Of a DNA stretch of 64,000 nucleotides, positions 2,952 through 5,555 are shown in pieces. The notes under the pieces were generated by a model, which was given only the letters and a program-made list of their open reading frames with translations, made no database searches and was not told the origin of the DNA. The translations under genes were made by a program, and so were the position numbers. The stretch is from a virus (taxonomy: Duplodnaviria; Heunggongvirae; Uroviricota; Caudoviricetes), in the IMG/VR virus record IMGVR_UViG_3300013132_000019. The stretch is one strand, 5' to 3'. Every line of letters begins with the position of its first letter. Within the stretch, counting starts at the first letter, position 1.

Positions 2952-3254
2952 TTATTTTTCAAATTTAGATTTCTCTGGGAACCTTAAATATAATAACATT
3001 TTAACGTCATCACTTAAACCATCATCGTCATGGTTTAAGAATATTTTATCTCCTCACCCCTCGGCAATATCTTTTTTATCATATATTTTCTTCAAAGCTT
3101 CAATATCAGACCATGTAATTAATTGGTTGTCATGACCAAGAATACCTTCCTTACTGACTAAGATATTTTTTCCACCTTTTTCAAAAGAAAAATAGTCATA
3201 TATATTACCGCCAAATTTAAGACCTTCCTTTAATTTCACTTTTAGATTTTGCAT
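2952..3254 (-). pseudogene. Hypothetical protein interrupted by an in-frame TGA at 3054-3056
   Basis: The 66-aa ORF continues in frame after TGA for 33 sense codons (GDKIFLNHDDDGLSDDVKMLLYLRFPEKSKFEK) to TAA at 2952. Confidence 0.5.
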
Positions 3255-3453
3255 TTTTTCTGGATTTAAACCATGATGTAATTTGAATTATAGTTCTTCT
3301 TGTTGAGAATATTGGCCAAAAAATAATATTAAAAACTGGTTGTAATGGATTATCATATTTCGTTTTAAAATATGATACATCAACGATAACCCATACCACC
3401 CCTTTGATAAGGTAATATAAACCAAAACCGACTATAACCCAAAGATTCATCAT
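3217..3453 (-). CDS. Small membrane protein
   Basis: Hydrophobic N-terminus and IIFWPIF segment. Confidence 0.6.
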   Translation of the reverse strand: MMNLWVIVGFGLYYLIKGVVWVIVDVSYFKTKYDNPLQPVFNIIFWPIFSTRRTIIQITSWFKSRKNAKSKSEIKGRS

Positions 3454-3502
3454 AATAATAAATATACAAATAAATATACAAAAAAATAATCAAAAAAAAA
3501 AG

Positions 3503-3574
3503 TGACACTAAAAAGATTCGAACTTTTACACTCAATTTAGAAGATTGAGATGCTTCCATTTACATCATAGTGCC
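3503..3574 (-). tRNA. tRNA-Arg(TCT)
   Basis: GGCACTA/TAGTGTC acceptor, TCAAT-CTTCTAA-ATTGA anticodon arm, AAAAG-TTCGAAT-CTTTT T arm; no encoded CCA. Confidence 0.9.
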
Positions 3575-3581
3575 AGAAATG

Positions 3582-3661
3582 TGACGACAGAGGGATTCGA
3601 ACCCACATCCTCCGCTCCGATTACGATTACGTAGTTCGTAGCTACGCTCGGCTATGTCGCC
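3582..3661 (-). tRNA. Non-canonical tRNA-Arg(ACG)-like RNA; no D arm at the usual position
   Basis: GGCGACA/TGTCGTC acceptor, CGTAG-CTACGAA-CTACG arm after an 8-nt connector, GTGGG-TTCGAAT-CCCTC T arm. Confidence 0.7.
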
Positions 3662-3676
3662 ATTTTAATTTTAACG

Positions 3677-3746
3677 TTGCGAGTATCGGAATTGAACCGA
3701 TTTGGCTTCCCTTATGAGAGGAGGCTCTTTACCATTAAGACTCGCA
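3677..3746 (-). tRNA. tRNA with CAT anticodon (Met or lysidine-type Ile2), short D region
   Basis: TGCGAGT/ACTCGCA acceptor, TCCT-CTCATAA-GGGA, ATCGG-TTCAATT-CCGAT. Confidence 0.8.
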
Positions 3747-3753
3747 ATGATTG

Positions 3754-3825
3754 CTCTGGTGGTGAATTACGATATCACGACCACTTGTTTAACAGACAAG
3801 TGCTCTGCCTCTGAGCTACACCAGA
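3754..3825 (-). tRNA. tRNA-Asn(GTT)
   Basis: TCTGGTG/CACCAGA acceptor, GCTC/GAGC D stem, CTTGT-CTGTTAA-ACAAG; atypical T loop (ATCG instead of TTCG). Confidence 0.85.
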
Positions 3826-3839
3826 ATTTTAATTTAATG

Positions 3840-3929
3840 TAGTGCGGATTGGATTCGAACCAATATTTGATGTTATCTCAACATGCCATTACGAGTATAG
3901 AAGATATAAGCTTCCATCGGTACCGCACC
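3840..3929 (-). tRNA. Non-canonical tRNA-Ile(TAT)-like RNA; no D arm at the usual position
   Basis: GGTGCGG/CCGCACT acceptor, 7-nt connector, GGAAG-CTTATAT-CTTCT arm, long insert, ATTGG-TTCGAAT-CCAAT T arm. Confidence 0.65.
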
Positions 3930-4034
3930 AAGAAAGATTTTTACCCTAGAGAATCTTGTAACTCTGTCTGACTACTAACTAGTTTTCATCAGATATCAAA
4001 AGTGTGCTTCAAAGAGAGGCATTGATGGTTGATG

Positions 4035-4125
4035 TCGACCTGATTGGATTCGAACCAATGTTTGATGTTATCTCAAGATACCAGCTACAGTTCTCAAACT
4101 TATCAGGTTTGGCTGCTACAGGTCG
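4035..4125 (-). tRNA. Non-canonical tRNA-Ile(GAT)-like RNA; no D arm at the usual position
   Basis: CGACCTG/CAGGTCG acceptor plus discriminator A, 7-nt connector, CAAAC-CTGATAA-GTTTG arm, 35-nt insert, ATTGG-TTCGAAT-CCAAT T arm. Confidence 0.7.
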
Positions 4126-4131
4126 AATTTA

Positions 4132-4223
4132 TGGCGGAGACGAAGAGAGTCCAACTCTTACATCAGCTCATCACTGACCTAGCCGTTTTCAAGACGGTGT
4201 ACCTCTGTCAACTGGGCGCCTCC
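4132..4223 (-). tRNA. tRNA-Ser(TGA)
   Basis: GGAGGCG/CGTCTCC acceptor, G discriminator, encoded CCA, CCGT-CTTGAAA-ACGG, long variable arm. Confidence 0.85.
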
Positions 4224-4240
4224 ATTATATAATTTTATCG

Positions 4241-4328
4241 CGGTGAGGAAGGGAGTTGAACCCTTACGAGACTGGTTACTCCTAACTACCTAGCAAATAG
4301 CGGCCACCACCAATTGGCTTGCCTCACC
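4241..4328 (-). tRNA. tRNA-Ser(GCT)
   Basis: GGTGAGG/CCTCACC acceptor, G discriminator, CTAT-TTGCTAG-GTAG, long variable arm, AAGGG-TTCAACT-CCCTT. Confidence 0.85.
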
Positions 4329-4340
4329 ATAAATTATTTG

Positions 4341-4412
4341 CACAGACATAAGGCCTCGAACCCTAACCAATTGATTTGGAGTCAATTATGCTTCCAATTA
4401 CACCATGTCTGT
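4341..4412 (-). tRNA. tRNA-Trp(CCA)
   Basis: ACAGACA/TGTCTGT acceptor, ATTGA-CTCCAAA-TCAAT, TAGGG-TTCGAGG-CCTTA. Confidence 0.9.
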
Positions 4413-4463
4413 GTGTTTAATATTAATATGTCAAAGAACATATTATCCGAAGATAATATTCTG

Positions 4464-4550
4464 GGTCTGGTATCGGACTCGAACCGATTGGGGTATTTCT
4501 ACCACGGGGTCACAACCCGTTCCGCTAACCTGTTACGGGCTAACCAGACC
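4464..4550 (-). tRNA. tRNA-His(GTG) with an extra variable arm
   Basis: 8-bp acceptor GGTCTGGT/ACCAGACC (G-1:C73-like), ACGGG-TTGTGAC-CCCGT, variable hairpin GGTA-GAAA-TACC, ATCGG-TTCGAGT-CCGAT. Confidence 0.8.
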
Positions 4551-4554
4551 ATAT

Positions 4555-4589
4555 AAAAACAAAAAACCCGACTGTTTAAGGTCGGGTTC
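4555..4589 (-). terminator. Intrinsic terminator between the leader peptide and the tRNA array (attenuator)
   Basis: Minus strand AACCCGAC-CTTAAACA-GTCGGGTT followed by TTTTGTTTTT. Confidence 0.85.
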
Positions 4590-4615
4590 TTCATTTCTTA
4601 GTTTTATAATTTAAA

Positions 4616-4702
4616 TCAACTAAAGTTATGAGCATAACCGACCATGGTGGCGCTACTGCGTCTCCAATTAATCGAATTCATATGTATGCTCATAGTTTTC
4701 AT
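4616..4702 (-). CDS. Putative attenuator leader peptide MKTMSIHMNSINWRRSSATMVGYAHNFS (28 aa)
   Basis: Translated manually. Lies between a promoter and a terminator; contains GGTCGGTT complementary to the terminator 5' arm; codons match the downstream tRNAs. Confidence 0.75.
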   Translation of the reverse strand: MKTMSIHMNSINWRRSSATMVGYAHNFS

Positions 4703-4723
4703 AGCTTTTTATTAAATATGGTA

Positions 4724-4755
4724 CAAATATATAAAAGTTTTAGATGTAATGCAAA
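4724..4755 (-). promoter_or_regulatory. Bacteroidota primary-sigma promoter driving leader plus tRNA array
   Basis: TTTG (4752-4755), 20 nt, TATATTTG (4724-4731). Confidence 0.8.
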
Positions 4756-4775
4756 TTTTTTATTATTTTTTTTTT

Positions 4776-4940
4776 TCAATCAATTAGTTTAACAAAACCA
4801 AAATCTAACCATCGCATAATGAAGTCTGTCGAATATTCGTTATTTTCTGTCATAACCATCCCAGTGTTTCGATTGTTTGACGCTTTGATGATTAACTCTA
4901 CTCTGTCTTTGAATTGTAATTTTTTCCCCTTTTTTAACAT
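4776..4940 (-). CDS. Small hypothetical protein (54 aa)
   Basis: Not in track. MLKKGKKLQFKDRVELIIK...WLDFGFVKLID; preceded by TTTG-N20-TATATTTG at 4961-4992. Confidence 0.55.
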   Translation of the reverse strand: MLKKGKKLQFKDRVELIIKASNNRNTGMVMTENNEYSTDFIMRWLDFGFVKLID

Positions 4941-4985
4941 ATTAATTTAATTTGTTTGTACAAATATAGTAATAATATTTGGTTA

Positions 4986-5555
4986 TCACAAATCTTCCTT
5001 ATGTTTTTCGAATATTGAGATTATTTTATTTACGGTTCTAGTAGTTATTATTTTTTCACCCTTAGTTAATGGTTTATCGAATTCAAAGAAATGTAAACCA
5101 ACAAAATACAACGCAGTGTCACTTTCGGCTATTTTTCTCATCTTCGACCATTTAATTTTATCCAATATTAAATCTTTCTTTTTGTCACCATCAAATAATT
5201 CTTCAGTTATTATGGTTATTTCTTCACCAATATCCAACGGTTTTAGTTTGTCAACTATAGAATCCTCTATTAGTATCTCGCCACGTTTGACCGTTAACTT
5301 TTCAGTGCCATCATTATTGGTTTCATACACAACATCCATATATGGTGAATCCATATCGTGATGTAATTTCCATATACTCACTTTATCGATGTTGGTTTTT
5401 TCCACAATATAGTTTATGAGGTCATAAACCAAAGCTATATCTTTAACACAATTTAAGATAGGTGTACTTTTAGTTCTTTCTATAAAGTTTTTATATATGA
5501 ACCAAGCATTGGCTATTATCAAAATGATAATAATAAAAATCGGTAACGTATTCAT
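4986..5555 (-). CDS. N-terminally membrane-anchored hypothetical protein
   Basis: One N-terminal hydrophobic helix plus soluble domain; coupled to and resembling the upstream gene. Confidence 0.65.
   Translation of the reverse strand: MNTLPIFIIIILIIANAWFIYKNFIERTKSTPILNCVKDIALVYDLINYIVEKTNIDKVSIWKLHHDMDSPYMDVVYETNNDGTEKLTVKRGEILIEDSIVDKLKPLDIGEEITIITEELFDGDKKKDLILDKIKWSKMRKIAESDTALYFVGLHFFEFDKPLTKGEKIITTRTVNKIISIFEKHKEDL

Follow-up and report, generated by a model that had tools for sequence, protein, structure and literature searches.

A putative leader-peptide attenuator whose codons match the tRNA genes it precedes in a giant phage

A stretch of 64,000 nucleotides of a Caudoviricetes virus (IMG/VR record IMGVR_UViG_3300013132_000019), called the window below, carries a unit in which a Bacteroidota-type promoter is followed by a 28-codon open reading frame (ORF), an intrinsic terminator and ten transfer RNA (tRNA) genes, and in which 14 consecutive codons of the short ORF can all be read by the tRNAs encoded behind it. 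The same design recurs in related phages with other codon sets, its antiterminator and terminator change together, and the predicted fold of its leader depends on the position of the ribosome. We consider it likely that the unit is a multivalent ribosome-mediated leader-peptide transcription attenuator of the phage tRNA operon, feeding back on tRNA supply. Such a leader probably lets this lake-water giant phage make its tRNAs only when those codons are decoded slowly. To our knowledge, the regulation of the often large tRNA sets of phages is essentially unknown, and tRNA genes are generally thought to be controlled by their promoters and not by attenuation.

Results

By standard wobble rules the ten anticodons of the array read 18 codons. 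All 14 of the leader codons 4–17 fall within this set and 10 of the 10 tRNA species are represented among them, which was claimed in an earlier reading made from the sequence alone (the sequence-only reading) and came out the same on recomputation. Among the 127,996 codon positions that the window offers when read in six frames, this run is the longest and the only one of at least 12 codons, the runner-up having 11 codons and 5 tRNA species. The background fraction of readable codons lies between 0.31 and 0.34 (0.31 across six frames), and with the codon frequencies of the window itself the run has a probability (p^14) of 2.3e-7 at any one position. Given 14 readable codons, all ten tRNAs are covered with a chance of 0.009, which brings the joint chance of both events to about 2e-9 per position; with the all-ten criterion left aside, 0.0075 such runs are expected in the whole window. 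The value of 4e-8 given in the sequence-only reading was somewhat optimistic for the run alone, while the joint event is rarer than it assumed. Attenuators of the leader-peptide family have clustered regulatory codons related to the function of the downstream genes, and this feature is present at the locus.

Six of the ten array tRNAs are called by ARAGORN and Rfam. Our own tRNA finder, which is independent of the leader and searches for a 7-bp acceptor stem, a T arm and one anticodon arm (U33, purine 37), yields eight genes, among them those for Ser-UGA, Ile-GAU, Ile-UAU and CAU missed by the programs. The combined set matches exactly the ten anticodons listed in the sequence-only reading. 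Since a T-run and a further promoter lie beyond the last tRNA gene, the unit consists of the leader and the ten tRNAs.

The promoter, the 28-codon ORF, the terminator and the tRNA genes were all found on the minus strand at the places where they had been proposed (Table 1). The consensus for the primary sigma factor of Bacteroidota is TTTG at −33 and TAnnTTTG at −7, about 19–21 nt apart. The promoter of the locus meets this pattern and was also listed as promoter-like by the site scan; boxes of the same type stand upstream of neighbouring genes and of the leaders in relatives, and the promoter of the close relative L001 is identical. An A-rich untranslated stretch of 18 nt separates its last box from the leader ATG (4702). 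Two further features of the attenuator family are present here, a short ORF with a start codon between the promoter and the downstream genes and an intrinsic terminator between this ORF and the first gene, tRNA-His. The terminator has a 12-bp stem followed by TTTTTTGTTTTT and a folding energy of −16.6 kcal/mol. The built-in terminator scan gave the hairpin on the plus strand only, and the T-run of the minus strand was read directly and by our own scan. The gene for tRNA-His (starts at 4550) begins 1–2 nt past this T-run, which leaves no terminator-free route into the array.

Table 1. Elements of the leader and the tRNA array, in coordinates of the 64-kb window; all lie on the minus strand and are listed in the direction of transcription
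Feature	Coordinates	Strand	Description and evidence
Promoter, Bacteroidota type	4724..4755	-	TTTG at 4755-4752, 20-nt spacer, TATATTTG at 4731-4724; read directly
Leader ORF	4616..4702	-	28 codons + TGA, peptide MKTMSIHMNSINWRRSSATMVGYAHNFS
Outer anti-antiterminator helix, 5' strand	4685..4694	-	UAUGAGCAUA, codons 3-6; minimum free energy and centroid folds, duplex search
Regulatory run, codons 4-17	4652..4693	-	14 consecutive codons cognate to the array, all ten tRNAs touched
Region 1, inner strand	4669..4675	-	UCGAUUA, codons 10-12; pairs with UGGUCGG in free RNA; within the 17-nt core
Antiterminator segment	4638..4643	-	GGUCGG, codons 20-22; complement of terminator 5' arm CCGACC, 4585-4580
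Outer anti-antiterminator helix, 3' strand	4627..4636	-	UAUGCUCAUA; fold and duplex search
Spacer hairpin across the stop codon	4597..4624	-	UUUAGUU ... AACUAAG; folding
Intrinsic terminator	4552..4592	-	Stem GAAGAACCCGAC/GUCGGGUUUUUU at 4592-4561, 8-nt loop, T-run to 4552
tRNA-His (GUG)	4465..4550	-	G-1 encoded; ARAGORN/Rfam and own finder
AU-rich UUCG hairpin, then motif	4413..4462	-	Motif GTTCTTTGACAT at 4439-4428; sequence and recurrence in relatives
tRNA-Trp (CCA)	4341..4412	-	ARAGORN/Rfam
tRNA-Ser (GCU)	4242..4328	-	ARAGORN/Rfam and own finder
tRNA-Ser (UGA)	4132..4223	-	Sole array member with encoded CCA; own finder; ARAGORN Ser-tga in L001
tRNA-Ile (GAU), atypical	4036..4125	-	Anticodon arm near position 15, long 3' region; own finder; missed by ARAGORN/Rfam
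tRNA-Ile (UAU), atypical	3841..3929	-	Architecture as in the Ile-GAU gene; own finder; weak Rfam tRNA-Sec match
tRNA-Asn (GUU)	3754..3825	-	ARAGORN/Rfam
tRNA with anticodon CAU	3678..3746	-	Met, possibly Ile2; own finder; no ARAGORN/Rfam call
tRNA-Arg (ACG), atypical	3582..3661	-	Anticodon at position 30; ARAGORN/Rfam and own finder
tRNA-Arg (UCU)	3503..3574	-	Last of the array, then T-run and next promoter; ARAGORN/Rfam

Free leader RNA is predicted to be strongly structured (z = −5.2). Two pairings proposed in the sequence-only reading were found again: the complementarity of GGUCGG to the 5' arm of the terminator and an alternative helix of 10 bp within the leader, the outer one of the anti-antiterminator (1:2) helices, which joins codons 3–6 with the ten bases just past GGUCGG. 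The duplex GGUCGG:CCGACC has 6 bp and an energy of −11.7 kcal/mol, equalled by 1.7% of shuffles. For folds with a ribosome footprint, an approach suggested together with these pairings, the nascent transcript was folded up to the terminator loop under a 29-nt ribosome mask, and the probability P that the terminator 5' arm is held by the leader served as a readout. With the A site on codons 2–16 P was about 1, i.e. in these folds stalls at these codons free the antiterminator, while for codons 17–26 it was 0.0–0.3 and for free RNA 0.18. The stall-sensitive window obtained by folding (codons 2–16) coincides with the codon run derived from the tRNAs (4–17), and in most relatives the two agree within about three codons. 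The antiterminator of six relatives prevails at full-length equilibrium as well, provided that the stall is on the codon run.

Three relatives bear large tRNA sets of 35–68 genes: G002 (152 kb, contig L138), G003 (353 kb, complete, with terminal repeats; contigs L141, L143 and L144) and G004 (83 kb, contigs L146 and L147). Their tRNAs are sorted into four blocks, which partition the 20 amino acids and stand each directly behind its own terminator. Block A comprises His, Trp, Ser, Asn, Ile, Met and Arg, and the SINWRR core characterizes its leader. In front of block B (Cys, Val, Leu) examples of leader segments are LVLCLLSSVVLL, LVLCLVVL and LVLCLCVLVL, those of block C (Phe, Glu, Asp, Ala) are FEFNFAAFAEEDD, FEFSFEAAEDD and FIFDFAIEAAEADF, and for block D (Pro, Gln, Tyr, Thr, Gly, Lys) they are TTTYKGKQYPQGTKP and QYTQGVKPSGTG. 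The leaders of the other blocks are not homologous to that of block A. Every block terminator has upstream of it a short ORF, the central part of which is written in the amino acids of its own block, and a promoter of the type seen in the window. With tRNA sets defined blind to the leaders, the pairing of leaders with their own blocks ranks 1 of 24 both in G002 and in G003. The leader run is the single longest one in the fetched DNA of the genome for G002_C, G002_D and G003_B. Strict codon-level runs were unremarkable in the cassettes G003_A, G003_C, G003_D and G002_B, partly because detection of tRNAs was incomplete.

The switch itself recurs along with the codons. In 15 of 15 cassettes the best duplex between the leader and the 5' arm of the terminator lies at codons ~17–25, just 3' of the codon run; in 11 of the 15 the own terminator is the best of 15 targets, and the duplexes of 9 of the 15 beat at least 98% of dinucleotide-shuffled leaders. 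The paired segments found elsewhere are GGUCAG/CUGACC, AGUCAAGG/CCUUGACU, GGGUCGAGC/GCUCGAUUC and CGGCUGGG/CCCAGCC, and GUCGGG is another variant of the antiterminator segment in relatives. Since the sequences differ between cassettes, this pairing is maintained by co-variation. The comparison of related phages proposed in the sequence-only reading, where co-variation had been called decisive, turned out in its favour: leaders differ as the tRNA sets behind them differ. In addition, antiterminator and terminator vary jointly. The ORF begins with AUG, keeps its frame and ends at a constant spacing from the terminator in 13 of the 15 cassettes, and the distance from the stop codon to the T-run was 42–56 nt in 13 of 15. 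The leader of contig L030 shows a moderate match to its array (14 of 23 codons by amino acid) and shares the antiterminator design. For the 1:2 helix the mean own rank across cassettes is a moderate 3.2 of 12, and folds of several relatives show no 1:2 effect.

Close relatives and variants of this phage tell how the leader itself is conserved. In L001, a 22-kb fragment of a close relative from IMG/VR, everything from the promoter through codon 22 is base-identical and the first change falls in codon 23, while the 54-codon ORF just upstream of the leader is only ~87% identical. A variant contig from an aquaculture metagenome has 27 substitutions, mostly in third positions, in the neighbouring 165-nt ORF (4776–4940), and zero substitutions across 4546–4793, where the leader and terminator reside. 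As the leader remained unchanged while the neighbouring ORF diverged, it is, judging by these comparisons, under purifying selection of the kind typical of RNA genes. Variants of this phage lineage occur in lake, lagoon, freshwater and aquaculture metagenomes.

More distant relatives were reached via the CCA-adding enzyme encoded upstream, and further ones via the 17-nt core TCGATTAATTGGAGACG. Seven contigs have a homologous leader with the core peptide SINWRR, a terminator and then a block of Ser, His, Ile, Asn, Arg, Trp and Met tRNAs. Among the codon changes of these homologues within the run 11 of 15 stay readable, whereas single-base neighbours predict 45% (p = 0.03). The conserved AUGCU block, which belongs to the 3' strand of the outer helix, is read in another frame in relatives, and its conservation is therefore at the RNA level; towards its C-terminus the peptide lacks conservation, and the frames in which this part is read are shifted. 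Four relatives (L129, L131, L133 and L130) have an ORF of 56–57 codons (…KLG.E…GELKFVKERG…) between the type-A attenuator and the tRNA block, ~170–345 nt past the leader core, which is absent from the window. In the GenBank phage collection no relative of the leader was found, the matches being tRNA fragments only. A pattern scan of IMG/VR with the promoter and ATGAAAACT gave mostly chance matches on ordinary genes, and tRNAs stood behind the match in two lineages only.

One more recurrent element is situated inside the array, past tRNA-His. The AU-rich hairpin with the motif GTTCTTTGACAT occurs in relatives 10–17 nt before most of the cluster tRNAs that it precedes (about 95 nt in L140), with sites at L139:11665, L139:12413, L140:5339, L143:4875, L144:921 and L030:8119, and sometimes lies directly past the terminator of a leader. 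Its function might be that of an internal promoter or of a signal for processing.

Discussion

In anatomy the element matches ribosome-mediated leader-peptide attenuators such as trp, his, thr, ilv and pheM-pheST. The his/trp/thr-type geometry recognized in the sequence-only reading holds, as the ORF, the codon cluster, the terminator and the antiterminator are all present. As parts of the attenuator reading, we infer that the leader is translated, that its translation is coupled to RNA polymerase and that a physiological trigger acts on it. Host RNA polymerase would start at the Bacteroidota-type promoter and a ribosome would begin the 28-codon leader, where codons 4–17 would act as a census of the ten downstream tRNAs. 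If the pool of charged cognate tRNAs, of host and phage together, ran short for any of these codons, decoding would be slow and the ribosome would linger on the 5' half of the leader, holding both anti-antiterminator helices open. GGUCGG could then capture the emerging CCGACC, and this duplex would block the terminator and let the ten tRNAs be transcribed. With fast decoding the ribosome would cross GGUCGG (codons 17–26) and leave the message, after which the leader would refold (UAUGAGCAUA:UAUGCUCAUA and UCGAUUA:UGGUCGG), the terminator would form and transcription would stop 10–15 nt before tRNA-His. Since the tRNA products would relieve the stall, such a unit would be a negative-feedback homeostat of decoding capacity.

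Cleavage of host tRNAs by anticodon nucleases as the trigger is a conjecture. The findings agree just as well with feedback on decoding capacity in general, and a mismatch in codon usage or a shut-off of the host would have the same effect as tRNA cleavage. The neighbourhood of the array, with its CCA-adding enzyme, kinase/2H-phosphoesterase, CYTH protein and metallophosphoesterase, fits a tRNA-cleavage trigger. On balance, and with somewhat less assurance than for the single unit, we favour a broader view, in which giant phages of Bacteroidota-type hosts gate each tRNA operon by its own codon-census attenuator. This closed loop would read out decoding speed in real time and top up tRNAs only when the host pool fails, be it through codon-usage mismatch, host shut-off or tRNA-cleaving defence, and the four channels of the relatives would together cover the 20 amino acids.

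A number of observations speak against the attenuator and should be set beside those in its favour. At full-length equilibrium the terminator of this copy (−16.6 kcal/mol) beats the antiterminator (−11.7 kcal/mol) under every mask, and the switch must therefore be kinetic. With the ribosome at the stop codon GGUCGG is free and the 5' arm is held by the leader with a P of 0.8, in disagreement with the earlier assumption that full translation covers this segment. What stands of that assumption is that GGUCGG is covered while the ribosome crosses codons 17–26; afterwards it is the 1:2 helices that are predicted to sequester it. The column-based count of covariation in the outer helix was not above controls, because the register of the helix shifts between sequences. 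Seven phage contigs show no variation in the 17-nt core UCGAUUAAUUGGAGACG, synonymous sites included, and this invariance points to a further constraint beyond codon membership. Should GTTCTTTGACAT act as a promoter, transcription of nine of the ten tRNAs could escape the control by the attenuator. Coverage by RNA is confined to one contig of the metatranscriptome run X20, which spans 4440–4544, i.e. a part of tRNA-His. Finally, two of the four leaders of G003 have no start codon. In these copies (L141:9300–9390 and L144:735–825) an identical promoter abuts the regulatory codons, there are in-frame stops upstream and neither AUG nor GUG nor UUG is found; they may be constitutive, truncated or unconventionally initiated.

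Four other explanations were weighed. A real attenuator might sense general translation status, such as ribosome availability, host take-over or coupling, with the choice of codons being secondary. Any slowing of the leading ribosome would give the same change of fold, and the invariant core suggests constraints beyond codon identity; however, four leaders in one genome with four disjoint amino-acid sets that match their own blocks would be left unexplained, as would a run covering all ten tRNAs, and we regard this possibility as unlikely. Slightly less probable still is that the promoter, the small ORF and the terminator make up a separate unit for a small protein or a small RNA, in which the terminator is an ordinary gene end and the tRNAs are transcribed from another signal, for instance GTTCTTTGACAT. 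The terminator is strong indeed, and the hairpin with GTTCTTTGACAT recurs just before tRNAs, sometimes right past a leader terminator. Yet at this locus tRNA-His lies between the terminator and GTTCTTTGACAT with no room for a promoter, and the motif is absent from the blocks G002_B, G003_A and G003_B. A separate unit also gives no account of the match between codons and tRNAs, of the joint change of antiterminator and terminator or of the fixed spacing from the stop to the terminator, and a small protein is hard to reconcile with the unconserved C-terminal part read in shifted frames.

Direct sensing in the manner of a T-box, where uncharged tRNAs or a protein would bind the codon triplets and stabilize the antiterminator with no need of translation, would suit the two G003 leaders that keep the codon string without a start codon, and the conservation of the core at the nucleotide level. 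We think it quite improbable: no T-box or riboswitch family was matched even at E <= 1, 13 of 15 cassettes have an AUG, a kept frame and a constant spacing between stop and terminator, substitutions follow codon membership, and an RNA reading ten anticodons has no known precedent. Least credible of all is a coincidence, i.e. a chance small ORF in AT-rich DNA whose terminator merely ends the preceding gene. Such DNA does favour the codons ATT, AAT and ATA and provides a readable background of 0.31–0.34, but even so only 0.0075 runs of this kind are expected in the whole window irrespective of the all-ten criterion, the design is found again with different sets of codons, and conservation is higher in the leader than in the gene next to it. 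The unique run, the ranks of own-terminator duplexes and of own leader-to-block pairings and the conservation in variants effectively refute it.

The attenuator favoured here can be compared with several known systems. In enterobacteria multivalent attenuators are represented by the leader of ilvGMEDA with codons for Ile, Leu and Val and by the thr leader with codons for Thr and Ile. They share with the phage unit a promoter-proximal short ORF, a codon run for several amino acids, a terminator, an antiterminator competing for its 5' arm and, as far as the folds of this copy predict, a 1:2 helix that keeps the antiterminator in free RNA. An antiterminator weaker than the terminator, which has to act kinetically, is likewise common to them, as in the trp leader of E. 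coli, where the 2:3 pairing is weaker than 3:4. Unlike these leaders, which control biosynthetic enzymes and contain tandem repeats of one to three codon types, the phage unit would regulate tRNA genes, and its census takes in seven amino acids and ten tRNA species, 1–4 times each. Its antiterminator segment is part of the ORF and precedes the stop by ~20 nt, its product would act directly on the sensed step and so close the feedback, and it is phage-borne in a Bacteroidota type of host. Biosynthesis or synthetase genes downstream, which are one more feature of the attenuator family, are missing here, since the downstream genes are the ten tRNAs.

The pheM leader, which is the attenuator of the pheST operon in E. 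coli, comes close in another respect, being a leader-peptide attenuator over a component of the translation apparatus with codons for the amino acid of that component; its target is a synthetase, for one amino acid only, and not tRNA genes. T-box riboswitches also couple the state of the tRNA pool to the choice between terminator and antiterminator before translation-related genes, but they need no translation and bind one uncharged tRNA directly, by means of a specifier codon and a box of 14 conserved nt, whereas here there is an ORF. Rfam gave no match to the T-box, a family defined by a stem I with a specifier loop and by the T-box sequence, in the region 3000–5500, even at E <= 1. The Rfam model Thr_leader (RF00506) reached 22.9 bits against a threshold of 55, with only the terminator part aligned. 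All Rfam matches over the leader (STnc240, ohsC, OrzO-P, Thr_leader and psbJ 3'UTR) were far below their thresholds and confined to the terminator hairpin, and they were dismissed.

Searches of the full-text literature, subscription-only papers aside, gave no report of tRNA genes under leader-peptide attenuation, be it in phages or in cells, and none of a multi-tRNA-sensing attenuator over a phage tRNA array, in agreement with what the sequence-only reading had supposed. If our interpretation is true, tRNA genes would here for the first time be known to be under leader-peptide attenuation. The leader would represent a direct sensor of decoding capacity, explain the fixed amino-acid blocks of tRNAs in these phages and tie the acquisition of tRNAs to host tRNA depletion or to anti-phage tRNA nucleases. 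It would also offer a compact, programmable multi-codon sensor for synthetic biology. The codon list of a leader, in turn, would be a way to annotate atypical tRNAs of phages.

Other features of the array and its surroundings

Three tRNA genes of the array, Arg-ACG, Ile-UAU and Ile-GAU (3582–4125, minus strand), are unusual in having the anticodon arm at positions ~15–16, an almost absent D arm and a long 3' region. ARAGORN and Rfam miss them or barely score them. The 3' regions of both Ile genes hold an identical hairpin, UUGA-GAUAACA-UCAA, and a stem may form between the 5' linker and the region 3' of the anticodon arm. Relatives also possess tRNAs with the anticodon CUA and one with UUA (L138:2336–2490, L145:3499 and 5973, L143:5242), which hint at possible suppressors and reassignment of stop codons in those phages. 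ORFs resembling GIY-YIG homing endonucleases are inserted in the tRNA arrays of relatives, where they separate tRNA-His from the tRNA that follows it (L124:11029–11676 and L123:3150–3810).

Genes for repair and maturation of tRNA flank the array of the window on both sides (559–2915 and 6359–7537, minus strand) and encode a metallophosphoesterase, a CYTH protein, a P-loop kinase fused to a 2H/CPD phosphoesterase and the CCA-adding enzyme. Farther upstream, at 11225–11596 on the minus strand, the phage has a transfer-messenger RNA, which scores 58.6 bits with Rfam model RF00023 and was not reported by ARAGORN.

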